A DNA stretch of 23,006 nucleotides from a virus (taxonomy: Duplodnaviria; Heunggongvirae; Uroviricota; Caudoviricetes): the IMG/VR virus record IMGVR_UViG_2617270967_000008; one strand, given 5' to 3'. The notes beneath the pieces are model-generated. The model saw only the letters and a list, made by a program, of their open reading frames with translations, did no database searches and was not told the origin of the DNA. Below, in pieces: positions 72-17,582 of this stretch (position 1 is the first letter of the stretch; each line of letters begins with the position of its first letter). The translations under genes and the position numbers were made by a program.

Positions 72-1376
72 CTATGATATGCGCTGAAATAATCCTGCCT
101 GTCTGATACCCGGAGATGATGTCCATAGCATCGGACCACATGCACGCCACGTGCCCGGTAAACGGGTCTCCCCCACATTACCGGAAGCAACCAGGGGAGT
201 ACCATTCGAAAGGCAACATGCAGACAGTGATGAGCCGGCAATGGCTGAGCCCGGTGCCATATCCCCCGAATAACTCGTCGCATAATATGCCGCAAGGACA
301 AAAGAACCGACACCAAACAGTCCGCTGTCAGGACTTCCTGACGGTCCCTGAGGTCCTGCCGGACCTGTGTCTCCCGTATCTCCCTTCGGTCCCTGTGGTC
401 CTGCCGGGCCTGTGTCTCCCGTATCTCCCTTCGGTCCCTGTGGCCCTGCCGGGCCTGCAGCTCCCGCATCCCCTTTAGGTCCCTGTGGTCCTGCCGGGCC
501 TGTGTCTCCCGTATCTCCCTTCGGTCCCTGCGGACCTGCCGGGCCTGTGTCTCCCGTATCTCCTTTTGGCCCCTGAGGCCCTGCCTGACCTGCGGCTCCC
601 GTATCCCCTTTTGGCCCCTGTGGTCCTGCCGGGCCTGTGTCTCCCGTATCTCCCTTCGGCCCCTGTGGTCCTGCCGGGCCTGTGTCTCCCGTATCTCCCT
701 TCGGCCCCTGTGGTCCTGCCGGGCCTGTGTCTCCCGTATCTCCCTTCGGCCCCTGTGGTCCTGCCGGGCCTGTGTCTCCCGTATCCCCTTTCGGCCCCGG
801 CGGTCCGCCCGGGTCACCTTTATCGCCCTTCGGTCCCTGTGGACCTGTTTCTCCCCGTTCTCCCTTTGGCCCCGGCTCACCTTTTGGTCCGACCGCCCCC
901 GTTGCCCCGGCTGGTCCCTGTGCCCCTGTGGCACCCTGTGGACCTGTGTCCCCCTTCTCGCCCGCCGGTCCCCGGGCATTCTCTGCCCGTTCCTTCGCTT
1001 CCTCTGCACTCGCCGCCGACGCTTCAGCACGCTTCAGGATTTCCGCTGCCACCGCTTCCAGCTCTGCAAGCGCTTTCGGGTAATACTGCACCTCATCCTG
1101 TTCCATCAGAAATTTATTCAGCGTTCCCGGCTCAGAATCCGCCTTCACCAGAATGTCACCCACATACGACGGGGCGTACCCTTCCGTGTTCAGCGTCACC
1201 CGGTACCACCCCGGCTCCACATCAAAACTGTAACTGCCGGTTTCCCCCGGCTGCCCCTGCGCCACCGTGGTGACTATCACCGTCTCACTCGTTCGCGTGG
1301 CTTTCAGCTCTATGGTGCAGTCCGGTACCGGTTTTCCTGTACCATCCTTCAGCACACCTGAAATCTTTACTGCCAT
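72..1376 (-). CDS. stf: Side tail fibre protein with lambda Stf-like N-terminus and a long collagen-like Gly-X-Y domain
   Basis: N-terminus [17 protein letters not shown]...PGTLNKFL resembles the lambda Stf N-terminus as I recall it; about 200 residues of [20 protein letters not shown] repeats; start taken at the ATG 1376..1374 (MAVKIS), the track start is an upstream GTG. Confidence 0.8.
365..790. repeat. About nine near-identical 45-bp tandem repeats (unit tgtgtctcccgtatctcccttcggtccctgtggtcctgccgggcc on +) encoding the 15-aa collagen-like unit
   Basis: Direct reading of lines 361-840: the unit recurs head-to-tail with a few point variants. Confidence 0.9.
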
Positions 1377-1385
1377 ATTCACCCC

Positions 1386-1414
1386 ACAAAAAAGCCCGCC
1401 TGAACCGGCGGGCT
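1386..1414 (-). terminator. Rho-independent terminator between the lom-derived ORF and stf
   Basis: Minus-strand hairpin AGCCCGCC-ggttca-GGCGGGCT followed by TTTTTTG. Confidence 0.7.
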
Positions 1415-1440: not shown

Positions 1441-2076
1441 TCAGAATTTATAACCGATACCCACGATGAAACCGTCAGTGCGCCAGTCACCACTGCCGGA
1501 GCCTTCATAAGCAATATCAATGGCCACGGATTCGGTCGGGTTAAACTGCACGCCAGCCCCCCACGCCAGAGACGTGTTGCTGTGGCAACCGTCATCACTT
1601 CCGGTCAGCACGTCGTGCGTTTTCCCCTTGTTGTCAGTTACGCGGAGATAATCCCCGGAGAAAGTCGACACACGGCTGTAAGCCACACCCGCCATCGCAT
1701 ACGCGCTGAACCATTCATTCACGCGTACAGACGGCCCCGCCATCACGCTGAACCAGCGGTTACGCACGGAATCTTCATGCCAGCGGGTATCTCTGTAGCG
1801 CGTTTTTTGCTCATCCTCAGCATTGGCATAACTGAAGGACGTAAGACGGGCATACACCGCCTCCGGTGCCGTGTCATCACCGGCAATACGTATCTGGTAC
1901 CAGCCTTCGTTCATCTGACGGCGAAAGCCCGGCATCTGCATCGACAGGGCGCGAATGGCTTCCGCTGCCGTGTTCACATACAGGCTGAGGCGGCGGCCAA
2001 ATCGTTGTAAATCCCCGTGAAGGCAGATGCGTGCCAGTGGCGGTGACGCCAGACAGAATGCGTTCGTCGTTGCCAT
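1441..2076 (-). CDS. lom: In-frame chimera: N-terminal ~70 aa of tail assembly protein I fused to C-terminal ~135 aa of outer-membrane protein Lom; likely deletion remnant
   Basis: Residues 1-66 (MATTNAFCLASPPLARICLHGDLQRFGRR...WYQIRIAG) resemble the lambda gpI N-terminus; from TSFSYANAEDEQKT to GYKF it matches the lambda Lom C-terminal two thirds as I recall it. No signal peptide is present. Confidence 0.75.
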   Translation of the reverse strand: MATTNAFCLASPPLARICLHGDLQRFGRRLSLYVNTAAEAIRALSMQMPGFRRQMNEGWYQIRIAGDDTAPEAVYARLTSFSYANAEDEQKTRYRDTRWHEDSVRNRWFSVMAGPSVRVNEWFSAYAMAGVAYSRVSTFSGDYLRVTDNKGKTHDVLTGSDDGCHSNTSLAWGAGVQFNPTESVAIDIAYEGSGSGDWRTDGFIVGIGYKF

Positions 2077-2717
2077 TTTTCGGAATACCTCTCCCGTTTA
2101 CTCAGTTGTTCAGGCAGATGGTGAAGCAGCTCACCGTTGCCGCAGTAAATGGCGGCATGGTTCGGTACCGAAGCACCAAAGCAGCACAGCAGAATATCGC
2201 CCGCCTGTGCAGAGGACAGGGGCACCCGGTAAAAGCCTGTGACCGCCATATTGTCCAGGTAAAGGTTCTGACCGTTGCGCCACCAGTCATCCTCGCGATG
2301 AAAATCCGGCATTTCAGTCCCCGCCAGATGATAAGCATCCCGAAACAGCGTGTAACAGTCCGTCACCCCGTGCTCAAAGCGCCGTCCTGTCAGATGTGGC
2401 ACACAGCGGAATTTGTGAATGTCACCCCGGCAGACCAGCCACCAGGGCAGTGCGCTTTTTATCTGCAGCCGCCGGTCAGCCTCGCTCAGCCAGGGCAGCC
2501 CACCGGGATGACTGTGGACCAGTGCCACAATCTCCCCCTGCATCTCTGCCCGCAGCCAGTCTTCCGGTGCGATACGAAAATACGCCTCCGGCTCTGCAGA
2601 AATATTCACACAAGGGATATACCACTCCCCCTCCGGCGTGCTTATCACGAAGCCGCACGACTCCGCAGGCGCACACCGCCGGGCATGCGCCAGAATCGCT
2701 GATTCAGTCTGTGTCAT
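1974..2717 (-). CDS. K: Tail tip assembly protein K (JAMM/MPN plus NlpC/P60 domains)
   Basis: HSHPGGLPWLSEAD JAMM motif and Cys/His NlpC/P60 motifs (GVTDCYTLF, NHAAIY); start at ATG 2717 (MTQTESAIL), 11 nt after the L stop. The 3' end overlaps the I'-lom start by 103 nt. Confidence 0.8.
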   Translation of the reverse strand: MTQTESAILAHARRCAPAESCGFVISTPEGEWYIPCVNISAEPEAYFRIAPEDWLRAEMQGEIVALVHSHPGGLPWLSEADRRLQIKSALPWWLVCRGDIHKFRCVPHLTGRRFEHGVTDCYTLFRDAYHLAGTEMPDFHREDDWWRNGQNLYLDNMAVTGFYRVPLSSAQAGDILLCCFGASVPNHAAIYCGNGELLHHLPEQLSKRERYSEKWQRRTHSVWRHRHWHASAFTGIYNDLAAASACM

Positions 2718-2727
2718 AAACCGGGAT

Positions 2728-3426
2728 TTACTGCGAAAGTTTATTAATGGAAAGGAAACCGCCAAAATTGCCGACATTCCTGCGCAGTTCACACCCGCGC
2801 ATGCACTTGCTGCATCTGTCCTTACGGATATCCGTGGTGGGTTTATCGAACTCATCCGCCACAGCCCCGCCCGTGTAACCACACTCATCAGAGCGGTAGG
2901 TCCACATACAGGTGTTCGCCAGCATGATACGACCGGGAAACAGCGCCCCGTCCGTCTCGGTCGGTGTGGCCAGCACAAACGAGGCCGTCATGGCTGTCAG
3001 CTGCGACATCTGCTCCACCACCCAGCGGTCACTCAACTCCTGCTCCGGGTCCGCCGCCGGATTGCCCGCAACGAAATTCACCGCATCCAGAAAACGGGCA
3101 TACACCCGGCGGCGGACCACCGTGGCCCCCACCAGACTCTGCAGGTCTTCCGCCATCCCGGTGACCAGACCGAACAGATTGGACACCGTCAGCGACGGTC
3201 TGGCACTGCTGCCCTTCCCGCTCATCTCAAAGCCGCTGCCATCAATCGGGTACGCCTGGTACTTCCGCCCCTGCCAGGTGACCGGCTCCCCTTTTTCATT
3301 CAGCTCATTACAGAAAAAATACCGCTCACCACCCTGCACCGTCAGGTCAATTTCCCAGAGTACCACCCGCGGTGACTGCTCTGATTTAACCGACTCGCTC
3401 AGACTTTCTTCGTGAATATCCTGCAT
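2728..3426 (-). CDS. L: Minor tail protein L
   Basis: 232 aa, MQDIHEESL...GNFGGFLSINKLSQ, closely resembles lambda gpL along its whole length as recalled. Confidence 0.9.
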   Translation of the reverse strand: MQDIHEESLSESVKSEQSPRVVLWEIDLTVQGGERYFFCNELNEKGEPVTWQGRKYQAYPIDGSGFEMSGKGSSARPSLTVSNLFGLVTGMAEDLQSLVGATVVRRRVYARFLDAVNFVAGNPAADPEQELSDRWVVEQMSQLTAMTASFVLATPTETDGALFPGRIMLANTCMWTYRSDECGYTGGAVADEFDKPTTDIRKDRCSKCMRGCELRRNVGNFGGFLSINKLSQ

Positions 3427-3459
3427 CAGTTCACCACCTGCTTAAACTCCGCGCTGAAC

Positions 3460-6581
<3,122 letters not shown>

Positions 6582-6607
<26 letters not shown>

Positions 6608-7127
6608 TCAGCAACCCCGGTATCAGTTCATCCAGCGCGGCTGCTTTGTTCATGGCTTTGATGATATCCCGTTTCAGGAAATCAACATGTCGGTTTTCCA
6701 GTTCCGGAAAACGCCGCTGTACCGAGAGAGGGATCCCGTCAAGAATACTGGCAATTTCACCTGCGATCCGTGACAGCACGAAAGTACAGAATGCGGTTTC
6801 CACCACCTCTGCGGAGTCTCTGGCATTCTTCAGCTCCTGTGCGTCGGCCTGCGCACGCGTAAGTCGATGGCGTTCGTACTCAATAGTCCCAGGCTGGAGA
6901 TCTGCCTCACTGGCAGCCCTGTAATCCTCAACCTCTTTACGGAGTTTTTCATTTTCGATATCAGCTTCCCTCTGCGCATACCACTGAATTGCCATGGCGG
7001 TATCAAATACAGATTCAACGCCCTTACCACCTCCGGAGACGCAAGGGAGTCCCTGAGACTGCCAGCGTTCAATCGTTCGCGGATCCACGTTGAAAATTTC
7101 GGCAAGTTTCTTTTTATTAACCTTCAT
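6582..7127 (-). CDS. nu1: Terminase small subunit Nu1
   Basis: 181 aa with an N-terminal winged-HTH; the C-terminal two thirds are near-identical to lambda Nu1 as recalled. Confidence 0.95.
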
Positions 7128-7129
7128 GA

Positions 7130-7345
7130 AACAGTCTCACAATAAATACAGGGGCCGACATGAAAGTGCCCGAAAATGACTTTTTTAGGCGTTTTCATGT
7201 CGGACCTTTTACGGATTCGATATTAGAAAAAACAAATAGTTATGTTCGAGAAGTACCGACATGATTTTCCCCGGAAAATTTTCATAAATAGCGAAAACCC
7301 GCGAGGTCGCCGCCCCGTAACGGCCCGGATCGCCGGAAAGGACCC
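7130..7345. other. cos site (cosB between Nu1 and cosN; cosN 12-nt cohesive end at 7304-7315; cosQ side to ~7345)
   Basis: Reverse complement of 7271-7315 reads GGGCGGCGACCTCGCGGGTTTTCGCTATTTATGAAAATTTTCCGG, the lambda left-end sequence beginning with the cohesive end. Confidence 0.85.
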
Positions 7346-7521
7346 ACGAAATGATAATGATTATCATCTATATAAGGTTTATCACAACATGTGTGTACGC
7401 CATCAAACCACGAGAAATAATCAATTATGACGCAGGTATCGTATTGATTGATCTGCATCAAATTAACGTAAAAGCAACTTCAGATAATACAAATCAGCAA
7501 CACTGAATATGGGGAAACATT

Positions 7522-7722
7522 ATGTCATCAAAGAACAGAACCCGCAGAACAACAACCCGCAACATCCGATTTCCAAACCAGATGATTGAACAAATTAACA
7601 TCGCTCTTGATCTGAAAGGTTCAGGAAACTTTTCAGCGTGGGTTATTGAAGCCTGCAGGAGAAGGCTGGCAACAGATGCAACGCATCTGCGCCCGGCCAG
7701 CATGAAAAATAACGAGAAATGA
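7522..7722 (+). CDS. Small ribbon-helix-helix-like protein, homologue of the small ORF at the lambda right end
   Basis: MSSKNRTRRTTTRNIRFPNQMIEQINIALD...SAWVIEACRRRL matches the lambda right-end ORF from memory; strand-helix-helix pattern. A Fur-box-like GATAATGATTATCATC lies upstream near 7350. Confidence 0.65.
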   Translation: MSSKNRTRRTTTRNIRFPNQMIEQINIALDLKGSGNFSAWVIEACRRRLATDATHLRPASMKNNEK

Positions 7723-7853
7723 ACGTTCGGCTACAGGAGCAGGTACCCACTGTCCTCCAACAATATTTCATCTTCATATCCGACGGAACAAGACTTACCC
7801 TGCCGGGATGTACAGAATAACAACAGAGTGATAATTAATTTCTGATGAAATAA

Positions 7854-8180
7854 TCAGGGTGCAGAAGGACTAAAGATAAACGTTTTCTTCACGCCTTTAC
7901 ACGGCCTGTCCTTCTCAAATCGCCATTTTGCCATCGCCTTTACAACCTGCTCATCAAACAAATGGTGCGGCTCTGAACGGATAAACTCAATTCGGGTGAC
8001 AGTACCATCAGCACCAATATCAAACTTCACATCAACCCGTCCCTTTATATAATTTGCCGCTGCATAGGCCGGATATTGTGGTAATGCCTTAACCAACTGT
8101 CGGGGCATATCTGTTTTATGTTGCGTACAGCCCATAACCAGAGAAGACAACAAAATAATTAACGGAAGGTTTCTTTTCAT
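7854..8180 (-). CDS. Lipoprotein with TonB C-terminal-domain-like region (moron at the bor-equivalent position)
   Basis: Signal peptide plus lipobox (LVMGC); YPAYAAANYIKGRVDVKFDIGADGTVTRIEFIRSEPHHLFDEQVVKAMAKWRFE aligns to the TonB C-terminal motif pattern. Start ambiguous (8186 or 8180). Confidence 0.65.
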   Translation of the reverse strand: MKRNLPLIILLSSLVMGCTQHKTDMPRQLVKALPQYPAYAAANYIKGRVDVKFDIGADGTVTRIEFIRSEPHHLFDEQVVKAMAKWRFEKDRPCKGVKKTFIFSPSAP

Positions 8181-8196
8181 TTTCATTCCCGGCACA

Positions 8197-8217
8197 GATA
8201 AGAATAAGTCTTATTCT
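8197..8217. promoter_or_regulatory. Perfect inverted repeat AGAATAAG-T-CTTATTCT (with GATA prefix) at the putative -10/+1 of the lipoprotein gene; operator-like, weakly Fur-box-like
   Basis: Direct reading: 8201-8208 is the reverse complement of 8210-8217; sits 11-30 nt upstream of the lipoprotein start on the minus strand. Confidence 0.5.
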
Positions 8218-8524
8218 AACAATGCCACCCTGTCGGTCATCAATCCTCTGCTTAATGGCAACGACAATTATCCGACTTAAATCACAAATCAGACACATGA
8301 CATAACAGAGCTTGCGAGGTAACACATCGTCCGGTTTCTTCCACCATCGCACCGGACCAGCGACCATGAGGGGACAACGCCGCGCTCCGTTAACACGGTA
8401 AACCCCGGTGTGTATCGTTTTTGATTATCCCCGCACACTCGCGCAGAGGAGTCTCCCGGTCGGGCTGCGGTCTCTGTTAATGCGGGGATACGGCGACAAT
8501 ACCGCGCATGGTTAATAAGGTCGC

Positions 8525-8749
8525 TCAACACACTGGCTGTAATGCAGCGGATACCATGCGGCATTTAGCGGCATTCATCGTACACTCAACGGTTAGCTCT
8601 TCATTCGTGGCATTCACCTGAAAGGTCCGGGAGTGTAATTGCGTACATTTACCACTGAACGAACCTTCAACAAGAACACGACCACGCTGCAAAATACGGA
8701 ACGGAATTGTTCCCTGAAAAGGCTTTACGGTTACCAGTAATTTCTTCAT
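8525..8749 (-). CDS. Hypothetical 74-aa protein downstream of Rz
   Basis: ORF with GGAGA 4 nt upstream of ATG 8749; no signal peptide, no recognisable motif. Confidence 0.4.
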   Translation of the reverse strand: MKKLLVTVKPFQGTIPFRILQRGRVLVEGSFSGKCTQLHSRTFQVNATNEELTVECTMNAAKCRMVSAALQPVC

Positions 8750-8772
8750 GCATTCTCCGGATAACAAAAATA

Positions 8773-9240
8773 CTAGTTAATACACTGAGTGCGGATATAG
8801 TCCTGCGCCCCTTCCAGTTGCTTCTGCATTGTCATCAACCGCTCTCTGAGGGTGAAATAATCCCGTTCAGCGGTGTCTGCCAGTCGGGGGCCGGTTGCAT
8901 TATCCACGCGGGCGGTGCCGGTGGCTTCACGCACGGAACCTGGACAGGTGGCGTTGATACGCAGGCTGCGGCGACCAGCGGCAACGTCAGCGCGCAGAGT
9001 TTCATTTTCAGCTCTCGCATCGGCTAACTCCTTTGTGTATTTTTCATCCAGCGCAGCAACATCACGCTGACGCTGCTGCATGTCAGTAATGGTTGTGTTT
9101 GCCAGCTCCAGCTCTCTGGCTTTTTTATCGCGCTGCGCTTTGTAGGTGATGGCGTTATCGCGGTAATGATTCAGCCCCAGACTAAGCACACCACAGGCTA
9201 CCAGCAGGACAATAATCACCACACACAGAACACGGTTCAT
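8773..9240 (-). CDS. Rz: Rz i-spanin
   Basis: [16 protein letters not shown]...[15 protein letters not shown]...QKQLEG matches lambda Rz; N-terminal TM; start at ATG 9240 (MNRVLCVV) with a GGTGGTGA RBS. Confidence 0.9.
8835..9020 (-). CDS. Rz1: Rz1 o-spanin lipoprotein, embedded in +1 frame within Rz
   Basis: [25 protein letters not shown]...[30 protein letters not shown] matches lambda Rz1 including lipobox and proline-rich region. Confidence 0.85.
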
Positions 9241-9339
9241 ATCACCACCAACGGATTGCCCAGACCAGAACAGCAATGGCCACAATACGAATGGCAAATG
9301 CCATTGCCCGAATAAGTTCAGCACTCATCTTTTTAAAGT

Positions 9340-9522
9340 TCACGATTTCAGCGCAATGACCAGTTTTGCCAGCCCATACAGTATCGGAGACACAGCGATA
9401 CCAACCGCCACCCACTTAATAGCAAAAGCCAGCGCTCTGCTGATGTCATCAGTTACTGGCGCTTTCAGTTCAAGGCCGTTTTTCATAGTCAACCTCAACA
9501 GAATTCGTTTATACTTTTCCAT
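9340..9522 (-). CDS. Small single-TM membrane protein between endolysin and Rz (function unknown)
   Basis: ATG at 9522 (MEKYKRIL...) preceded by AGGGAGA; hydrophobic FAIKWVAVGIAVSPILYGLAKLVIAL segment. Confidence 0.45.
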   Translation of the reverse strand: MEKYKRILLRLTMKNGLELKAPVTDDISRALAFAIKWVAVGIAVSPILYGLAKLVIALKS

Positions 9523-9550
9523 GTTCTCCCTTGCCTTATCCAAGGTCAGA

Positions 9551-9590
9551 AACACAAAACCCCGCTTGCAGCCAACAAACGGGGTTTTTA
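9551..9590. terminator. Hairpin with flanking T/A runs (weak, bidirectional-looking) between endolysin and the small membrane gene
   Basis: CCCCG...CGGGG stem with a 15-nt loop, TTTTT on + and UUUUGUGUU on minus. Confidence 0.35.
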
Positions 9591-9678
9591 CTTTTATTCA
9601 CTTAGTTTTTGTTAGTTCGCAGGATTTCGTGTTATCCGTCCGTGTGAGCAAACCGCATTTTTCAGCAAAATATTCTGC

Positions 9679-10212
9679 TTATCTGTCAATTCCCCAGCAC
9701 GCCAGCGCACTCTCCTGGTCGCGACGGGATACCTGACCGTAACAGTTGTTTGAGCGAATACGGCAGTCTCTGCCACCGTCCTTAATCCACCAGCGAATCG
9801 CTTCGCATGCTCCCCTGCGATCACCTGCATTAATTCGTCTGTAAAACGTCGACGGGAAACACTTACCGGGACCAATGTTGTACGGACAGAATGACGCGAT
9901 CCCCGCTTTCTGGGGTTCGGTCAGCGGCACTCTGATGTTTTTCTCCACCCACGCCAGCGCTTTATCACGCTCAATGGCGTTAACCTGGTCGCATTTTTCC
10001 TTCGACAACTTCATGCCCGGAACGACAGGTTTGCCATCCACCATGATGGCACCACGGCAGATGGTCCAGATACCCGCACCATCACGGTATGCCGTGGTGT
10101 GGTTGCCTTCTTTTTCATCCAGAAACTGGTCGAGAATTTCAGGCGCAGACGCACCAGCGGCAATCAGCGCCAGAACGGCAGCCGACAGGCCGTATCTGAT
10201 TTTTGCGTTCAT
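9679..10212 (-). CDS. SAR-type endolysin (phage lysozyme with N-terminal signal-arrest-release domain)
   Basis: N-terminal weakly hydrophobic Gly/Ala-rich segment (LSAAVLALIAAGASAPEIL) followed by a lysozyme-like catalytic region (EGNHTTAYRDGAGIWTICRG); resembles phage 21 R / K-12 prophage Rrr-type lysozymes. Confidence 0.85.
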   Translation of the reverse strand: MNAKIRYGLSAAVLALIAAGASAPEILDQFLDEKEGNHTTAYRDGAGIWTICRGAIMVDGKPVVPGMKLSKEKCDQVNAIERDKALAWVEKNIRVPLTEPQKAGIASFCPYNIGPGKCFPSTFYRRINAGDRRGACEAIRWWIKDGGRDCRIRSNNCYGQVSRRDQESALACWGIDR

Positions 10213-10337
10213 GGATATTTATCAGGATTTATCGGTTCCGAATCCCTGGATATGTTAAGTCTTCAGCCCGCCAGTGGTGGGCACTGGCGTAAACTCAACA
10301 ATGCGAGATGGCTGCCTCGCAAAGATAAGGAACAGAT

Positions 10338-10613
10338 ATGAGTGAAGAAAATAGCAAAGAGAATACAGCACTTTTTGACAGAATTTTTACTCTTGAGTTA
10401 CAGGTCGGTTTTCTTCTCCCAAAGATAATCAAAGCAATGGATGCACTAAGTAAAAATAACGCTGTGTCAGATTACCTGATCGCCGAAATGGAACATCTAA
10501 TTAAAGAAATACCAAAGACAGTTGCTCGTGATGATAAAAGATTCCTCAAGGCTGCTGAAGATGCTCTTTCAACAGTGAAGCGCAGCTTAGATGCGCCGCG
10601 CGATCAAGAATAG
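10338..10613 (+). CDS. Hypothetical 91-aa helical protein, AT-rich, convergent with and overlapping the 3' end of the 176-aa gene
   Basis: ATG 10338 with AAGGAA 7 nt upstream; about 38% GC; overlaps 10546-10613 with the minus-strand gene. Confidence 0.5.
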   Translation: MSEENSKENTALFDRIFTLELQVGFLLPKIIKAMDALSKNNAVSDYLIAEMEHLIKEIPKTVARDDKRFLKAAEDALSTVKRSLDAPRDQE

Positions 10614-11076
10614 TTTCTTTCATTTCATCTGCTGCAAGCACCTCATTTTTTGTTGGGGTGCTTTTTTTCAATTCAGCGATATAGCACTCCAGTTTTTCAA
10701 TGCGTGATTCAATATCATCGTTTTCTGACCGCAATGCCGTCGGTGGCGTCTTCAGAGAACCAGTAATTATTCCCGGTAGTTTTCCTCTGTAGGTTATCAA
10801 CACATCCTGCGCCTCTAAAATTATGGGGCGCTTTTCCGGCAACGGACCATCCCCTTCACATAACCCGGCAGCAACATCCATGAAAAACTGCTTCGCCTGC
10901 TTTTTCGCCTCAGCTTCGTAAAACTCCAGCGTGGCATCTTCAGTACGGTCAAGACTAATCGCCACATCTGGCAACAACAGTGACGGATACCCACCAATTT
11001 CCAGTGCCACAGTAACAGTAATCTTATTCGGGTAATTATTTATCCCTTTAACAACCAGTTCGTATTTTTTCTTCAT
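10546..11076 (-). CDS. Hypothetical 176-aa soluble protein inserted between holin and endolysin
   Basis: ATG 11076 lies 4 nt after the holin stop with GGGGAGAG upstream (translational coupling); no TM or signal peptide; predicted coiled-coil C-terminus; no family recognised. Confidence 0.6.
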   Translation of the reverse strand: MKKKYELVVKGINNYPNKITVTVALEIGGYPSLLLPDVAISLDRTEDATLEFYEAEAKKQAKQFFMDVAAGLCEGDGPLPEKRPIILEAQDVLITYRGKLPGIITGSLKTPPTALRSENDDIESRIEKLECYIAELKKSTPTKNEVLAADEMKETILDRAAHLSCASLLKEHLQQP

Positions 11077-11080
11077 CGCT

Positions 11081-11296
11081 TTACTCTCCCCGCGCCGCCT
11101 TACGACGGTCCTCTCTGATTTTGAAATACAGGTTAGTCAGATATGTCAGCAGCCCAAACAGCAGACTTCCCAGTACGCCTATTGCCGCCCACTGAGACGG
11201 GGAAACCCTGTCCAGCAGCTGCAGGAACCAGTAGCCCGTCCCCACCGCTGACGTGGTGTATGACACACCTGTTGTGATTTTTTCCATCTGGTACAT
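11081..11296 (-). CDS. Class II holin/pinholin of the phage 21 S type, with dual-start motif (M1...M4)
   Basis: 71 aa, ...[50 protein letters not shown], resembles S21 pinholin and K-12 EssD-type holins; two TM segments. Confidence 0.85.
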
Positions 11297-11371
11297 ACCC
11301 CGTCTCCCGCAATCCGGAAGCTCACAACAACAAGAGGGGCATCAGCTCACACCGACAGCCCCTGCGCATGG

Positions 11372-11641
11372 TTACATCATCATTTCGCCGTCAGGCTGAG
11401 GCTCACTGCTACCATCAGGCTGAGACCCGACGCCATCTGAAACAGCACTGTCATCCGCAATGCCTTCCGGCTCCGGAACAGTCGGTGCGCCCAGCAGTTC
11501 ATCCAGAATGGCATCCACTTCTGCATCAAGACGCGCCTCAAGGTTCTGCCGAAGTTGCTGTTTCAGTGCGCTTCTGACTTCTTCAGAGCGCAGGACTTCC
11601 TTCACTGCTTCAGCAGTGACCAGCGATTTTATTTCTGACAT
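11372..11641 (-). CDS. Hypothetical acidic 89-aa protein upstream of the holin
   Basis: ORF from ATG 11641 (MSEIKSLV...); helical N-terminus, acidic Pro/Glu/Asp-rich tail; weak RBS. Confidence 0.4.
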   Translation of the reverse strand: MSEIKSLVTAEAVKEVLRSEEVRSALKQQLRQNLEARLDAEVDAILDELLGAPTVPEPEGIADDSAVSDGVGSQPDGSSEPQPDGEMMM

Positions 11642-11678
11642 GGTATTTTCTCGTTGAAAGGTGTTGTTAAGAAAGTTG

Positions 11679-11861
11679 CTACGGAATGAGAGGCTCTTCG
11701 GGTTTTGTTCCGGCTGACTGACTGGCACTGATTTTCTCAGCGGCCCTTTTGTCAATCTGCCTGCGCCAGAAATCTCTCACGACTCTGTACCCACCAGAAA
11801 GAAGATACAGCACACAAACTGCTGTACAGAAATACAACATAATCAGCTGTAAAAATGTCAT
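11679..11861 (-). CDS. Hypothetical 60-aa membrane peptide
   Basis: ORF with hydrophobic N-terminus (LIMLYFCTAVCVLYLLSG); overlaps the next ORF in another frame. Confidence 0.3.
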   Translation of the reverse strand: MTFLQLIMLYFCTAVCVLYLLSGGYRVVRDFWRRQIDKRAAEKISASQSAGTKPEEPLIP

Positions 11862-12009
11862 TATTCATCTCCATTATTGACATGGTCAATGCCTGCCAGT
11901 AAAAAACTCCTGCATTTTTTGCTCAGCATATTTTTGCTAAGGATGTAGCGACTTCTGCCGCCGGTTCTGGCTCCTTGTTTTCCCTGCCACGGCGGTCTTT
12001 TTTTCCTGC

Positions 12010-13953
12010 TTACGGGTTATTCACTTCCACTGTTATACTTTCAATCAGCACCGGGTAAGTCGCATTTTTAGTGATATCGGTCACGCGCAACTTGTCTGCC
12101 GTAAACGTGCCGACCGGAGACTGCGACAGCATGAATGGTGTCCCGTCCTTACCATCAATGACCGGCGTCACCTCAATACTGTTGTTACCGGCAAAACGGA
12201 AGCCCAGCGTATGCCATTCGTTATTAAATGCGCCGAATGACCCCAGCTTCGTGTTCTGCGCCGTGTTTCCTTTGTGATACATCACGTTAAGGTCTGTGGC
12301 ATCGCTCTGTACGTAGAACGATGCCAGCAGGTTATGACCGGCATTACCTTCCAGTGTGACCCCCTGAGGCAGGGAAGAAACCGGCCAGTACAGCGCCAGT
12401 GCGTACTGATTAGCCGTAAGCGCGCCATCGAGTTTAAAACGACAACTGACAAGACCACCTTTACCCAGCAGGTCCGCACCATTACCAGCATCATGCTCAA
12501 GGTACCAGGGGGCTCTTCCTGTTTCCTTGGTCAGTTTCATTGCCTTACCCCCGCTGGCTCCGGCATCATCCACGATTTGAGCCTTGCCACCTCCGGCAGC
12601 CCAACCCTGTGGTGTCAACCGTCCTTCAGACTCAGATGCCCGGTAAGCAAATAGCGTACTCATCGTCGTGGTGTCTGCGGGTGGCGTGGACGGTTTTGAT
12701 GGTGTATCAGGTGACGGCTTCTCATCCGGTGGTGTCACGGTCTGCCCGCGCATCAGTTCAGCCGTGCGCCCTGCATGGAGCATAATAGCTGAGGCCAGAC
12801 GGTCTGAAATGACGCCCCTGCGTGCCCATGAGCTGAAATGGCTGTCACGCTGTGTCGAAACAAAACTGCCCTGGGTTCGGGATGCTGCACCGTAATACCC
12901 GACAGCCACAATATCCGGGTCTTCCGCCGGAGCATTCGTTGGCGTGCTCTGTCCATTCTCATCCGTCAGGAACGGTACAAAGAAAATATTCTGTGCTTCC
13001 CTGCCCTTGTAACCGCCATATACCGCCTCATATTTATCGGCGTTAAGATTCTTCCAGTAATACGTGGTGTCACCACAAATCCACGGCACCGAGCCAGCAC
13101 TTCCGCCAACACACTGTGCAGAATATGCAGCCATATCAGCCCTGAACTGCTGCACCATAGTGGTAAACAGGCCGCTGTGCTGCTGACTGCCGTCCGCAAG
13201 ATCATTTTCCCCCTGCATCCATACCACGGCCAGAAGCCTGTTTTTCGGGTTCTTCGACAGCGCCGCTTTTGTACGGAAGAGAAAATCCTGATACAGCGGT
13301 TTACCCACTCCCCAGCGGGCTGAATTTGCCGATGCGCCAGACGTTTCGCTGAACGTGCCGTCATTACCCACGGTTAAACCAGACCCGCCACGGCAACAGG
13401 GCACCAGAAGAATCCCGGCATTCTGCGGGATATAAGGCAGAAGTTTTTTGGCAATATGCAGCCCCTGACCGACAGTCCCGTACTGGCCCTTACTCAGGTC
13501 TGCATGAGGATGGTTAAGTGCGCTCATGTCCTGAACATCATGCAGACAGTGGTCTGCCGGAATAACGTCATTGTATGCACAGGTATCACCACCCGGCGTC
13601 ACAGTGCTGCGACGGGCCAGCTGCTTAATACGGGAGTCAGGGCGATCATAGGTCTCCGGCAGAGGAAGCCCCTCACCATAGGCCATACCGTTCGACTGCC
13701 CGGCCAGGGGAATAACGTAGTAATACTCCGGTTCAGTGGTAGCCACTCCCGGAGAGCCACCAGCCCCTGTGTCGGGCACAACCACAGGCGTGGTCACATC
13801 ACCCTCTGCGGCAATGGCCTGCATCAGTGTATAAGGCGTGATAGCCACAGGACTGCCAAACGGCTGCCAGCCTTCCTTCAGTTTTTGTGTCAGTCGCTCC
13901 GCAAGGTCTGACGGCGACGCCGCCCTGACCACGTCATAGTGTTTAAATGCCAT
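12010..13953 (-). CDS. nanS: Prophage sialate O-acetylesterase (NanS-p-like; the large ORF that follows stx in Stx phages)
   Basis: N-terminus MAFKHYDVVRAASPSDLAERLTQKLKEGWQPFGSP is the characteristic start of these esterases as I recall; about 647 aa; strong RBS AAGGGGAGGA before ATG 13953. Confidence 0.8.
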   Translation of the reverse strand: MAFKHYDVVRAASPSDLAERLTQKLKEGWQPFGSPVAITPYTLMQAIAAEGDVTTPVVVPDTGAGGSPGVATTEPEYYYVIPLAGQSNGMAYGEGLPLPETYDRPDSRIKQLARRSTVTPGGDTCAYNDVIPADHCLHDVQDMSALNHPHADLSKGQYGTVGQGLHIAKKLLPYIPQNAGILLVPCCRGGSGLTVGNDGTFSETSGASANSARWGVGKPLYQDFLFRTKAALSKNPKNRLLAVVWMQGENDLADGSQQHSGLFTTMVQQFRADMAAYSAQCVGGSAGSVPWICGDTTYYWKNLNADKYEAVYGGYKGREAQNIFFVPFLTDENGQSTPTNAPAEDPDIVAVGYYGAASRTQGSFVSTQRDSHFSSWARRGVISDRLASAIMLHAGRTAELMRGQTVTPPDEKPSPDTPSKPSTPPADTTTMSTLFAYRASESEGRLTPQGWAAGGGKAQIVDDAGASGGKAMKLTKETGRAPWYLEHDAGNGADLLGKGGLVSCRFKLDGALTANQYALALYWPVSSLPQGVTLEGNAGHNLLASFYVQSDATDLNVMYHKGNTAQNTKLGSFGAFNNEWHTLGFRFAGNNSIEVTPVIDGKDGTPFMLSQSPVGTFTADKLRVTDITKNATYPVLIESITVEVNNP

Positions 13954-14040
13954 TATTCCTCCCCTTTCCGGGATTTTCCTCAACAGTTGCGGGCCACGGT
14001 CCGGCTACACGGAGAATCAAAAGAGGAGAACCGCAGCCCG

Positions 14041-14072
14041 CAAAACGAAAAAGGCCGCGCAGTTGCGCAGCC
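14041..14072 (-). terminator. Rho-independent terminator upstream of nanS-p
   Basis: Minus-strand GGCUGCGC-aacu-GCGCGGCC 8-bp stem followed by UUUUUCGUUUUG. Confidence 0.65.
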
Positions 14073-14133
14073 TTATCACAGATGGTAAAAATCAGAACAC
14101 GATAATAAAAATACCTGATGTATATTCATGCGA

Positions 14134-14165
14134 CCCGCCCGCCACTCACTGCGGGCTTTTTTTTG
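14134..14165 (+). terminator. Plus-strand hairpin followed by T8
   Basis: CCCGC-cactcact-GCGGG then TTTTTTTT on the + strand; the opposite orientation to the surrounding genes. Confidence 0.5.
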
Positions 14166-14171
14166 CCCATA

Positions 14172-14199
14172 GAAAAGCCCCTCCGGAGAGGGGCTTTTT
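14172..14199. terminator. Bidirectional rho-independent terminator
   Basis: AGCCCCTC-cgga-GAGGGGCT flanked by AAAA and TTTT. Confidence 0.65.
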
Positions 14200-14439
14200 A
14201 CAGTGGTAGTGTAGACAATTTTGCATGGTGCCGGGTGCCTCCCGGTGAGTTCAGTATCAGCACCTGAACCCGCACAGAAAGGATAAGGGTCGGTGACAAA
14301 ACACCAGTTGCTGATTGCCCCTCCGCACAGGGGGATTCACCATGCCAGTTTCTTTTAACAAACTCCCCGCAAACCAGACAACAGTCAACCGCCTGAATTG
14401 TGAGGTATTTAAAAATTTCAACGGGTAACTGATACCCTG

Positions 14440-14613
14440 CTAATCGCCTGATGCTTTCTTTTTCAGCAACGGGAAAGCAACAACCACCACACCCGCCACC
14501 AGCACACCGTCAGCCAGCACTGACATTATCCGGCTGCTGAAGTCCACCATCACCACCATCACTACCAGAAACAGCAGGAGCGCAACCACAGCCAGACGCA
14601 TTTTTACCGTCAC
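14440..14613 (-). CDS. Small two-TM hydrophobic peptide (~57 aa) translationally coupled to the TerB-like gene
   Basis: GTG 14613..14611 overlaps the TerB stop (GTGA) with GGAGA 7 nt upstream; an ATG lies at 14601; own translation MRLAVVALLLFLVVMVVMVDFSSRIMSVLADGVLVAGVVVVAFPLLKKKASGD. Below the ORF-track size cutoff. Confidence 0.45.
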   Translation of the reverse strand: MTVKMRLAVVALLLFLVVMVVMVDFSSRIMSVLADGVLVAGVVVVAFPLLKKKASGD

Positions 14614-15041
14614 AGATGATTCTCCAGACGAAGGCCCAGAACACCGGCAATCTCTTCCAGCACCTTGCGCTCTTCCGGCTCTATTTCGCCGTCTGCTTCG
14701 GCAATGGCCACCGCCACATCCAGCACGTCTTCCGCTTCACGCGTATCGTGTTTCACATCCTCGATCTCACGTAACGCCGCTCGACGACCAATTTTAAAGT
14801 TCGTATCCAGCTGACCGATAATGGTTGCGCTAATCGCATTAATTTCTGACGTAAACGCGGACAACGCAGGCTGGTTACGCAAGACCTGCTCGATCTTCGC
14901 TTTCTCTGAAGCCTCACATTCACCATCTGCATAGGCCACCAGATAGGCAGCATTAATAACCGCCTGTGCCAGATCACGTTTCTCAAACTTTTTAATTTCC
15001 ACTGCCGCTCGGCGGGCTTTTTTACCAAAAATACCAAACAT
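14610..15041 (-). CDS. TerB-domain (tellurite-resistance TerB-like) protein, cargo at the stx-equivalent position
   Basis: Two ADG-containing helix pairs (AAYLVAYADGECEASEKAKI and VAVAIAEADGEIEPEERKVLEEIAGVLG) typical of TerB; start at ATG 15041 (MFGIFGKK) with AAGGAA 8 nt upstream. Confidence 0.7.
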   Translation of the reverse strand: MFGIFGKKARRAAVEIKKFEKRDLAQAVINAAYLVAYADGECEASEKAKIEQVLRNQPALSAFTSEINAISATIIGQLDTNFKIGRRAALREIEDVKHDTREAEDVLDVAVAIAEADGEIEPEERKVLEEIAGVLGLRLENHL

Positions 15042-15181
15042 CGTGACGTTCCTTTGGGTGGGTGAGCCAACGCCCGGGAGCGATCTGCCCACAGAGAAAG
15101 TCACACTGACCACTCCGTAAGCTCACCCCCGAAAGGCTCTGTGGTTGATATGCGCCGGGCGTGGCGCGGATACAAAAAAGG

Positions 15182-15210
15182 CCCGCAAAAGCGAGCCGGG
15201 AAAAATAAGT
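15182..15210 (-). terminator. Terminator after the tRNA cluster
   Basis: Minus-strand GGCUCGC-uuuu-GCGGGCC (one G-U pair) followed by UUUUUUGU. Confidence 0.55.
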
Positions 15211-15211
15211 C

Positions 15212-15288
15212 TGGCGCGTTGTACTGGATTCGAACCAGTGACCGATTGCTTAGAAGGCAATTGCTCTGTCCGGCTGAGCTAACAACGC
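15212..15288 (-). tRNA. tRNA-Arg (anticodon UCU)
   Basis: Hand-folded cloverleaf: acceptor GCGTTGT/ACAACGC, D-arm GCTC/GAGC, anticodon loop CTTCTAA, T-arm ACTGG-TTCGAAT-CCAGT, discriminator G, encoded CCA. Confidence 0.85.
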
Positions 15289-15304
15289 AGGATACAGATA
15301 ATGA

Positions 15305-15378
15305 ACCGCCTTCGGGGATCCGAACTCCGCGCAACCAGCTTCGAAGGCTGGCGCTCTTTCCTGATGAGCTAATGGCGG
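15305..15378 (-). tRNA. tRNA-Arg-like (anticodon UCG) with non-canonical features; possibly degenerate
   Basis: Hand fold: D-arm GCTC/GAGC, anticodon arm CCAGC-CTTCGAA-GCTGG; T-loop TTCGGAT with one A-C mismatch in the T-stem; acceptor 6/7 paired, starts C1-G72, no encoded CCA. Confidence 0.5.
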
Positions 15379-15385
15379 TATGTGA

Positions 15386-15461
15386 TGGTGGCCCTTGCTG
15401 GATTTGAACCAGCGACCTGGCGATTATGAGTCGCTCGCTCTCACCACTGAGCTAAAGGGCC
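15386..15461 (-). tRNA. tRNA with anticodon CAU, resembling E. coli tRNA-Ile2 (ileX-like) rather than tRNA-Met
   Basis: Hand fold: acceptor GGCCCTT/AAGGGCC, anticodon loop CTCATAA, T-arm GCTGG-TTCAAAT-CCAGC, encoded CCA; overall resemblance to ileX as recalled. Confidence 0.8.
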
Positions 15462-15489
15462 GAGCCAAAAAATAATAATCAGATGAAAA

Positions 15490-16203
15490 TCAATAATCAA
15501 GCCCTTGCCTGGATACATATCTGTCTGGCGGGAAGCCATAATAGCGGTGAAATACAGAAATAAAGTAGGACCTGCTTGAATAACCGCATTTTTCTGCTAT
15601 AGCCTGTCCATATCCATGCCGGGAACATAACATATTTACAGCAACACGCATCCGCTCTTCCAGCAACAAGCGACTGAACATGCCCCCTTCATTTTTCAGT
15701 TTTGTCTTTAACAAACTCTCACTCATATGCAACTGTAGAGCAATCGCACAAAGCGTCCAGCTTGCTGATATATCTGTCTGAATTATCGCCCTGACTTTGG
15801 CACTTATGCTGGATAAACATCCACTTAAAAACAATGACATCCGTTCATCTGTTTCAAACAGAGACAGGCAGGCCATCATAAGAAACATATCCGTGGCCTC
15901 TCCGGAAAATCCCTGGCTGGTAATTAAAGCCGCAGCCAACGCAGGATTGTTGGGTTCCAGCAACAGGTAAAGCGGAATGTCAGTCAGACGAGTCCTCGTC
16001 AGCTTATGCTGACTTTCCAGATATTGACTTACGACGGATTCGCTTATATCGACAATTTTAACTTTGCCATAATGCATAAGGAAAAGCTCCCTGATGCATT
16101 TGGTGGCCAGAACAACTGAGCCTGGCTTAAGTGACAACGTATCCTTTTCAAGAAAAATATTAATTGGGGAGCAAACCATGATAACTGAACAGACAACAGC
16201 CAT
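15490..16203 (-). CDS. AraC/XylS-family transcriptional regulator (AppY/EnvY-like; prophage regulatory cargo)
   Basis: C-terminal double-HTH (...LLKTKLKNEGGMFSRLLLEERMRVAVNMLCS...AEKCGYSSRSYFISVFHRYYGFPP) resembles EnvY/AppY; N-terminus MAVVCSV like AppY MDYVCSV; AT-rich. Confidence 0.85.
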   Translation of the reverse strand: MAVVCSVIMVCSPINIFLEKDTLSLKPGSVVLATKCIRELFLMHYGKVKIVDISESVVSQYLESQHKLTRTRLTDIPLYLLLEPNNPALAAALITSQGFSGEATDMFLMMACLSLFETDERMSLFLSGCLSSISAKVRAIIQTDISASWTLCAIALQLHMSESLLKTKLKNEGGMFSRLLLEERMRVAVNMLCSRHGYGQAIAEKCGYSSRSYFISVFHRYYGFPPDRYVSRQGLDY

Positions 16204-16237
16204 TATAATTTTACTTTCATTAGCAATTGGTTAGCTC

Positions 16238-16268
16238 AATTATAGCCCCAAAAGGTAAATTATCATCA
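16238..16268 (-). promoter_or_regulatory. Putative sigma-70 promoter for the AraC-family gene (-10 TATAAT, -35 TTGATG, 19-bp spacer)
   Basis: Minus strand reads TTGATGataatttaccttttggggcTATAAT about 30 nt upstream of the start codon. Confidence 0.5.
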
Positions 16269-16321
16269 ACACATAAGCAAAGGACTGACAGGTGTCGCCC
16301 CCCACCAGCCGCCCATTCACC

Positions 16322-16350
16322 ACAAATAAAAAGCCTTCAGGACTGAAGGC
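16322..16350 (-). terminator. Terminator overlapping the 3' end of the small wHTH gene
   Basis: Minus-strand GCCUUCAG/CUGAAGGC hairpin followed by UUUUUAUUU. Confidence 0.6.
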
Positions 16351-16534
16351 GTCTGTAACAACCGCACTGATAGTCTGCCAGACCCACCATAACAAGCTGG
16401 GTCAGTATTAACTGGCAGCGTTCGCGTGAAAGGTAAGTATTCTGCGCAATCTCCCCGACGGTCGCCGGTTCGGTGACGCTTAATTCATTAAACACCACTC
16501 TGGCGGTTTCTGTCATATCCTGCTGTTTTAGCAT
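16337..16534 (-). CDS. Small (65-aa) putative winged-helix DNA-binding protein, first ORF after pR'/tR'
   Basis: ATG 16534 (MLKQQDMTE...) with GGAAAAGGGA upstream; TVGEIAQNTYLSRERCQLILTQLVMVGLA resembles an HTH recognition helix. Confidence 0.45.
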   Translation of the reverse strand: MLKQQDMTETARVVFNELSVTEPATVGEIAQNTYLSRERCQLILTQLVMVGLADYQCGCYRRLQS

Positions 16535-16656
16535 GTCTTTTTCCCTTTTCCGGTTAACGTGACACACCAATAACTCTTGTCGAAAAAGCCAGCAAGCTGA
16601 AAGACAGGTATTCACCGCCACCAGCGCGTTTACTGTACTGACGCGATTTCAGTCAT

Positions 16657-16680
16657 AAAAACCCCGCCAGGCGGCGGGGT
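16657..16680 (-). terminator. tR'-like terminator immediately downstream of pR'
   Basis: Minus-strand CCCCGCC-gccu-GGCGGGG followed by UUUUU. Confidence 0.7.
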
Positions 16681-16685
16681 GTAAA

Positions 16686-16755
16686 AAATCTTCTAACGTC
16701 AGGCATAAAACGCCCATCGTTAGAGCAAATTTACCACAGATTCGGGAAAAATCAA
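16686..16755 (-). promoter_or_regulatory. Late promoter pR' with qut-like region (-35 TTGATT at 16755-16750, -10 TAAATT at 16733-16728)
   Basis: Minus strand GGTAAATTTGCTCTAACGATGGG closely matches the lambda pR' region GGTAAATTTGACTCAACGATGGG as recalled; starts 6 nt after the Q stop. Confidence 0.75.
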
Positions 16756-16760
16756 CAACA

Positions 16761-17582
16761 CTATCGCGTTACCCTCTTTAACTGCCGCTCCGCCCATGCC
16801 TCTTCAATGTCAAACCGAACCACCAACGTATCGTAAAAGCGTTTCACTGATTTTTTCCACGTATCAAGCGTGATAGCACTCGTCACTTTGCATATGGCAT
16901 TAAATGCCTCCGTTGATGGTAGTCTTTCACAGCCACGACCACCACAACGCTGGCAGTCTCTGATAACAGGCATACCACGTTTTACCGACTCTTCACGATG
17001 AATGGCGACACCACGCCCACGGCAATCCTTACAGGCGGTGGAAACCTCACCCTTTCCGCCACACTCCGGACAGGCAACTTTTACCACCTCCCTGACTTTT
17101 TTCCATTCTTCCCAGTAAGACGGATACACACCTTTCGTACACTTTGCCCATACCGGCGGCTTACCATCCGGATACTGGACCTTGTTTGTAAAAACTACGC
17201 TTTCAATAAATTTTTCCCCATAGCAACAAGGGCACTGCTTTTTACTCGCTGCGCTGCGGGCATAATCCTCAAAAGCGTACGAAGCCATAATGCGCATCAC
17301 TACCGGTTTTATTTCTGCCGGGAGTTTTCTTAACGCCGCCACGCGATCACACCGACTGAGTGCATATTCTGTCAGCAATTCTGTTGCCCGCTCTCTGTCA
17401 TTCATACTAATGCCCATTTTACCAAGGAACGCAGAAAACCCCATCTCAGCCCGATTCTGTGTCATGCCCTGCGCGGCCATCACATCAGTGATACTCAGCG
17501 CATCTTTCGACGTTGAGGCCGATGCATCAGTCAGGCCGGGGGATTTTGGGGAGTAGTATTTCGGTAAATCTTCCAGTTTCAT
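16761..17582 (-). CDS. Q: Late-gene antiterminator Q (lambda Q family)
   Basis: Alignable to lambda Q at the N-terminus (YSPKSPGLTD...DVMAAQGM), zinc-binding cysteines, and C-terminus (TLDTWKKSVKRFYDTLVV...LKRVTR); 273 aa with insertions. Confidence 0.85.
   Translation of the reverse strand: MKLEDLPKYYSPKSPGLTDASASTSKDALSITDVMAAQGMTQNRAEMGFSAFLGKMGISMNDRERATELLTEYALSRCDRVAALRKLPAEIKPVVMRIMASYAFEDYARSAASKKQCPCCYGEKFIESVVFTNKVQYPDGKPPVWAKCTKGVYPSYWEEWKKVREVVKVACPECGGKGEVSTACKDCRGRGVAIHREESVKRGMPVIRDCQRCGGRGCERLPSTEAFNAICKVTSAITLDTWKKSVKRFYDTLVVRFDIEEAWAERQLKRVTR

Follow-up and report, generated by a model that had tools for sequence, protein, structure and literature searches.

A 211-residue open reading frame (ORF) in a lambda-like Escherichia coli prophage joins the start of the tail-assembly gene I, in frame, to the end of the moron gene lom. 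The I'-'lom ORF is very probably a fusion pseudogene, left behind by a single deletion of about 4.53 kb in a cryptic prophage under stepwise decay. Features expected of such a pseudogene were seen: the flanks are collinear, the breakpoints lie inside two coding sequences, and the same prophage carries further lesions (B'-'FII and FII'-'M). The stretch of DNA analysed (23,006 nt; hereafter, the window) is the whole of contig JNRW01000069.1 from the E. coli draft assembly GCA_000704885.1 (locus L012; the window is L012 reversed). An earlier note on this DNA had described the deletion and the lost signal peptide, both of which stand; it had also proposed an unusual architecture and a stable fusion protein, and these are not supported.

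Materials and methods

The junction was mapped by three-way alignment and a base-by-base walk. The prophages of HCP4S3_I4 (L005) and S1-CAM-01-A (L018) were used as intact references. For the reading-frame tally, the chance expectation was that one junction is in frame with a probability of 1/3. The tally took in the window, the sister loci, and three independent decayed prophages. The coordinates of the features are listed in Table 1.

Table 1. Features of the window (positions and strand)
Feature	Position	Strand
Side-tail-fibre N-terminal domain protein, collagen-like repeats, downstream of the chimera	72..1382	-
Terminator-like GC hairpin and T-run just 3' of the lom stop; native lom terminator, kept	1393..1414	-
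I'-'lom chimera, 211 aa; in GenBank also 178 aa from an in-frame GTG at 1977	1441..2076	-
'lom fragment, codons 67-199 and stop of a 199-codon Ail/Lom gene; 24-aa signal peptide and the 42 residues after it missing	1441..1844	-
Deletion junction, 2-bp TT common to both parental sequences; about 4529 bp gone	1843..1844	.
I' fragment, codons 1-78 of a 226-codon gpI homologue; N-terminal domain truncated	1843..2076	-
gpK homologue, intact, JAB/NlpC-P60 peptidase; last ~100 bp shared with the start of I', as in lambda	1974..2717	-
gpL homologue, intact	2728..3426	-
'M fragment, equivalent to lambda M residues 58-109; out-of-frame junction with FII'	3429..3584	-
B'-'FII fusion ORF, 340 aa, portal gpB residues 1-213 and gpFII residues 21-110, in frame	3460..4482	-
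NanS-p-type esterase, DUF1737, SASA and DUF6645 domains	12010-13983	-
TerB-domain protein	14610-15113	-
Three tRNAs, Met-CAT, Arg-TCG, Arg-TCT	15212-15461	-
AraC-type regulator	15490-16203	-
Q antiterminator	16761-17582	-

Results

Identity of the two halves of the ORF

The minus strand of the window carries an uninterrupted ORF of 636 nt, with an ATG at 2076 and the stop codon at 1441-1443. In BLASTP searches, ORF residues 1-78 matched residues 1-78 of lambda gpI (J02459; 59% identity, E=2e-32), and ORF residues 78-211 matched residues 73-206 of lambda Lom (48% identity, E=2e-43). Pfam assigned residues 15-69 to Lambda_tail_I (PF06805; profile positions 3-55 of 83) and residues 77-211 to Ail_Lom (PF06316; profile positions 65-199 of 199, E=2.9e-81). 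In the intact relatives, the same profiles span positions 3-83 of 83 in I and 1-199 of 199 in Lom. A PDB sequence search split the ORF alike, with gpI (8iyk) at 1-78, Lom (9wso) at 75-206, and OmpX and Ail as more distant matches; the OmpX alignment starts only from OmpX residue 53. As judged by these searches, the homology of both halves lies far beyond chance. The earlier note had read the ORF as an in-frame I'-'lom chimera and had proposed pairwise alignment to lambda I and lom as a check; BLASTP, Pfam, and the PDB search all bear the reading out, and the N-terminal part is I-derived.

Expressed in the residues of the intact relative, the chimera is gpI(1-78) followed by Lom(67-199), chimera residues 79-211 being Lom 67-199. 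Its N-terminus, MATTNAFCLASPPLARICLHGD, is the same as that of the intact gpI homologue over 78 residues. The homology to gpI stops at residue 78, and the C-terminal region of gpI (residues about 80-223) is missing. The peptide that spans the junction contains EAVYARLTSFSYANAEDEQK. At the other end, the C-terminal beta-signal with its aromatic last residue is kept (...GFIVGIGYKF, as in lambda Lom).

The junction and the missing DNA

Base-level mapping against L005 assigned 2076..1843 to I and 1844..1441 to lom. The alignments to L005 and L018 both break at window position 1843/1844, inside the two coding sequences, and the flanks are collinear. Compared with L005, 4529 bp are missing; compared with L018, 4528 bp. 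The missing DNA comprises I codons 79-226, J in full, the spacer between J and lom, in which a terminator-like hairpin lies, and lom codons 1-66. This agrees with the earlier claim that most of I, the whole J gene, and the 5' part of lom, signal peptide included, were lost by deletion. The TT at 1843-1844 is the sole microhomology at the junction. Illegitimate recombination is the favoured mechanism because the junction homology is only 2 bp; homologous and site-specific recombination were rejected on the same ground.

A full J gene elsewhere, contiguous with the locus, had been named beforehand as a finding that would contradict the deletion. tblastn searches with lambda J and with the J of the relative found none in the window or in sister loci L007, L008, and L011, and blastn gave no match to the deleted segment in the same four places. 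The K-I-J context is thereby broken, with K upstream of I' and J absent.

Several E. coli genomes hold both halves about 4.5 kb apart within one prophage. In E. coli S1-CAM-01-A, the intact L018 prophage lies at the same chromosomal site (potA-potB-ykgJ-like) and has the order tfa-stf-lom-J-I-K-L-M-H. The window is 97.0% identical to L018 on the lom/stf side and 96.4% identical on the K-L side. In the other reference, L005 of HCP4S3_I4, an annotated ompC porin gene is inserted between the tail genes M and L (8781-9914).

The two halves might also have come from different elements, with I supplied by one lambdoid prophage and lom by another instead of by an internal deletion, although we regard this origin as highly unlikely. 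To either side of the junction, the genes follow one another in the order, orientation, and spacing seen in one intact prophage at this chromosomal site, even though E. coli offers many paralogous lambdoid tail modules for such an exchange (a median of 3 and up to 28 places per genome matched the region by megablast in 5426 complete genomes). The 2-bp homology at the junction tells against homologous exchange, while the differing flank of sister locus L011, described below, suggests that the remnant is able to join in rearrangements. The uneven identity to L018 could be taken as a trace of two sources, but mosaic identity differences are normal in lambdoid phages. Either origin would lead to the same functional verdict, that of a dead fusion remnant.

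Other lesions of the prophage

tblastn with the lambda structural proteins was used to lay out the window. Nu1, A, and W are intact and are followed by B(1-213)-FII(21-110), FII(110)-M(58), intact L and K, I(1-78)-Lom(73-206), and then the N-terminal domain of a side-tail fibre (stf). C, D, E, FI, Z, U, V, G, T, H, and J were not found in the window by this search. The window thus has three deletion junctions, of which B'-'FII and I'-'lom are in frame and FII'-'M is out of frame. The B'-'FII junction (at about 3851-3856) has a 6-bp microhomology, CGGGTA, and 4206 bp are gone relative to L007; Pfam returned Phage_portal_2 and Phage_attach together on its 340-aa ORF. At the FII'-'M junction (about 3585-3587, minus strand), Z, U, V, G, T, H, and the 5' half of M are gone, and this junction is common to 11/11 sister contigs.

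The sister contigs form a series. I'-'lom and FII'-'M are present in all of them, combined either with B'-'FII, with or without Nu1'-'A, or with W'-'B. Nu1'-'A, in L010, L015, and L016, joins Nu1(1-42) to A(517-641) in frame on top of the junction pattern of the window. W'-'B, in L006 and L007, joins W(1-53) to B(142-533), again in frame, and some sister contigs keep B(142-533), C, D, E, FI, and a full FII alongside the W'-'B fusion. Grounded prophages are known to decay by deletion (PMC6379469), and the nested series of junctions corresponds to the pattern that stepwise prophage degradation would be expected to leave.

The stf gene downstream of the chimera contains a repeat array at 342-813 with 10.5 copies of a 45-bp collagen-like (GXY) tandem unit. 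Sister loci that are almost identical in other respects encode stf products of 404 to 479 aa, which shows that the number of repeats is unstable. The stf gene call of L012 runs almost to the contig end. On the same strand, the late-regulatory region of the window (12010-17582) is organised like that of Stx phages, with the difference that there is no stx gene.

Reading frames at the junctions

With 2/3 junctions of the window in frame, the probability of at least two of three is 0.26. In the prophage lineage, 4/5 junctions are in frame (I'-'lom, B'-'FII, W'-'B, and Nu1'-'A), which gives P=0.045 at p=1/3, a post hoc value that includes the two junctions that drew attention. The whole tally adds an in-frame junction from 2013C-4974, A(292)-L(212). 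I'-'lom, B'-'FII, W'-'B, Nu1'-'A, and this A'-'L are then in frame, FII'-'M and the I'-'lom of EC2341 are out of frame, and P=0.045, likewise post hoc. When the two junctions that prompted the flag were removed and the other lineages were included, 3/5 were in frame (P=0.21). Independent I/J/lom deletions with other breakpoints were found in 3/5426 complete genomes.

The in-frame junctions are consistent with chance, and the weak excess leaves slight room for a frame bias. The earlier note had seen a two-deletion architecture that preserves reading frames and had called this unusual. The window has three junctions, the middle one of which (FII'-'M) is out of frame; the I-lom deletion of EC2341 is out of frame as well, and the value of 0.26 for the window is what chance gives. 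That frame preservation is no accident, either through selection for unbroken translation of the late operon (for example, of the downstream tail-fibre or cargo genes) or through an I'-'lom product that is tolerated as a cytoplasmic protein with a new role, appears to us very improbable.

Export, fold, and expression of the product

Intact Lom starts with a typical signal peptide, MRKVCAAILSAAICLSVSGAPAWA, which is gone from the chimera. The Lom part also lacks the first 42 mature residues, SEHQSTLSAGYLHARTNAPGSDNLNGINVKYRYEFTDALGLI. No signal-peptide features were found in the N-terminus of the chimera, which is the gpI N-terminus. As for the barrel, the match to profile positions 65-199 of 199 in Ail_Lom leaves 64 positions missing, short of a full eight-stranded barrel. 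Placed on the profile and OmpX alignments and the known OmpX/Ail topology, the lost residues would have formed the signal peptide, strands 1-2, and the N-terminal half of strand 3. The N-terminal domain of gpI is incomplete too, as its last about 20-28 profile positions are lost, including the conserved VIHIVPRLAG of intact I. Each half thus seems to be broken off within its fold, and a short-lived, misfolded product confined to the cytoplasm would be expected.

The earlier statement that the ORF cannot be an outer-membrane Lom is upheld, since the signal peptide and the start of the barrel are missing and no complete Lom barrel can be exported. The stable cytoplasmic fusion protein that was proposed alongside it is unlikely, as the gpI domain breaks off near position 55 of 83 and Lom is without 64 of 199 positions; the copies are identical and give no sign of maintenance.

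The ORF retains the native gpI start, a GGAG-like motif upstream, and the overlap with K, and Q is present; it would therefore be translated if the late operon were transcribed. A simple promoter scan found no promoter-like sites above the shuffle expectation upstream of the chimera or of intact lom. In the intact relative, terminator-like hairpins bracket lom, one after J and one after lom (L005 2697-2716 and 2020-2041), and the one just downstream survives in the window. The location of lom between two terminator-like hairpins is the classic layout of a moron, an independent transcription unit, and the bracketing hairpins of the intact relatives fit this model. If the moron model applies, the deletion would also have removed the lom promoter. 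With the upstream hairpin and the would-be promoter region deleted, the ORF would be transcribable only within the Q-dependent late operon. Lambda Lom has been reported to be expressed from the prophage (PMC3594210).

Carriers of the junction

The same 41-nt junction and the same 636-nt ORF occur in 11 contigs, which are independent assemblies from several projects and include the closed 4.84-Mb chromosome CP170296.1. The surrounding 2051 bp differ among them by 0-10 mismatches. Given these copies, the I'-'lom event is real, single, and recent. The comparison with other strains, which had been suggested before, was thereby carried out, and the junction is identical in every carrier. Megablast did not find the junction in 5426 complete RefSeq E. 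coli genomes, in which the two halves were matched separately at 97-99.8% identity. The closest intact genes elsewhere are 99.8% identical on the lom side and 99.7% identical on the I/K side, so there has been no time yet for the chimeric ORF to decay. As regards selection on the fused ORF (dN/dS), 11/11 copies are nucleotide-identical, with zero differences to score, and the intactness of the ORF is therefore uninformative on selection.

Where the contigs are long enough, the remnant adjoins potB-potA-pepT-roxA-phoQP-purB. The flank is different in L011 (GCA_000704665.1, JNRL01000022.1). At 5400-13534 of this locus, the remnant adjoins an integrase gene, a formate/nitrite-transporter-family gene (probably yfdC), mlaA, fadL, a DUF406 gene (probably yfcZ), and a thiolase gene (probably fadI). 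Compared with the potB-potA-pepT flank elsewhere, this suggests inter-prophage recombination (a chromosomal rearrangement) or a mis-join in the draft.

Could the ORF be a retained new gene, whose product is a stable fusion protein that has taken on a new role in the cytoplasm, with selection keeping translation of the late operon running? The chance of this is very slim. The chimeric ORF is intact, with its native start and translational context, and it persists in 11 contigs; but the copies are nucleotide-identical, and their persistence reflects recency and clonality, not selection. The 4/5 in-frame junctions of the lineage fall to the 3/5 (P=0.21) given above once the flagging junctions are left out and other lineages are added, and both FII'-'M in the same window and the independent I-lom junction of EC2341 are out of frame. 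Furthermore, the gpI and Lom domains are both truncated inside their folds, the promoter signal is not above background, and the junction is missing from the 5426 complete RefSeq genomes. An assembly artefact, that is, a collapsed or mis-joined contig, was rejected as practically negligible, for although the window is a short-read draft contig and lambdoid tail genes are repeated in E. coli genomes, the junction has no repeat to cause a collapse and is identical in 11 contigs of independent assemblies, including the closed CP170296.1.

Discussion

The fusion pseudogene can be accounted for by a short sequence of events. Illegitimate recombination at the 2-bp TT linked codon 78 of I with codon 67 of lom. 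Lost in this event were the C-terminal two thirds of I, the whole of the host-recognition gene J, the hairpin after J, and the upstream region and signal peptide of lom. The two frames would coincide by a 1-in-3 chance, and gene callers would consequently see a single ORF of 211 aa (or 178 aa). Translation would be possible only from the I start, within the Q-dependent late operon, which would be silent in the lysogen. The product, made of a partial gpI N-terminal domain and 5.5 of 8 beta-barrel strands, would probably stay in the cytoplasm, misfold, and be degraded. The fusion would have no function of its own, and its sole biological meaning would be a prophage that is unable to build a tail tip.

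The chimera has entered the databases in two forms, a 211-aa "hypothetical protein" (EFC4077933.1) and a 178-aa version with a GTG start (KDA76001.1 and others). The shorter version (1441-1977, minus strand) is named either "Ail/Lom family outer membrane beta-barrel protein" or "bacteriophage lambda tail assembly I family protein". The chimera can be neither an Ail/Lom barrel nor a tail assembly I protein, and these names are a small annotation trap for surveys of virulence genes or morons. The nested series of sister contigs may be of use as a lineage marker, or to show on a concrete case in what order a prophage decays. The biological weight of the fusion is otherwise little. It is one more step in ordinary lambdoid prophage decay, and the loss of J abolishes tail-tip formation.

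A literature search did not find the junction of gpI codon 78 to Lom codon 67 as a described chimera. I'-'lom is new solely as a particular example, and the kind of event is already known.

Like lambda gpI (PF06805, 8iyk), the chimera has the same start context and the same overlap with K, and its residues 1-78 are homologous (59%). In contrast to gpI, it is without 65% of the protein, including the end of the N-terminal domain and the entire C-terminal part, and J is absent, so there is no tail tip for gpI to assemble. With lambda Lom and the eight-stranded barrels of Ail and OmpX (PF06316; 9wso, 1qj8, 3qra), it shares the C-terminal 133 residues to GYKF, and the downstream terminator is kept. 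It differs from them in that the signal peptide is gone along with 42 residues from the start of the mature protein, which hold strands 1-2 and some of strand 3, and from Lom also in that the upstream region, with the hairpin after J and any lom promoter, is deleted.

A close parallel is E. coli EC2341 (NZ_CP072976, KBW65_RS06235 and RS06230), in which a deletion likewise runs from inside I to inside lom, J is gone, and the prophage is without head genes. That event was independent and has other breakpoints, at about residue 118 of I and about residue 62 of Lom. The EC2341 junction is also out of frame, with the I frame stopping just past it, and RefSeq gives two pseudogenes there. As the in-frame chimera is named as a protein whereas the out-of-frame EC2341 genes are called pseudogenes, in-frame deletion scars escape pseudogene flagging.

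Deletion-derived remnants have been described in cryptic or defective lambdoid prophages of E. coli, including DLP12, Rac, and Qin of K-12 and the defective pool of O157 (PMC6379469). The window resembles these elements in that head and tail genes are lost stepwise, with breakpoints within coding sequences that leave truncated or fused ORFs, and in that regulatory, lysis, and cargo parts are kept. The element also lies at a fixed chromosomal site at which intact relatives are found in other strains. A point of difference is that I'-'lom happens to be in frame, so some GenBank annotations call a protein and not a pseudogene.
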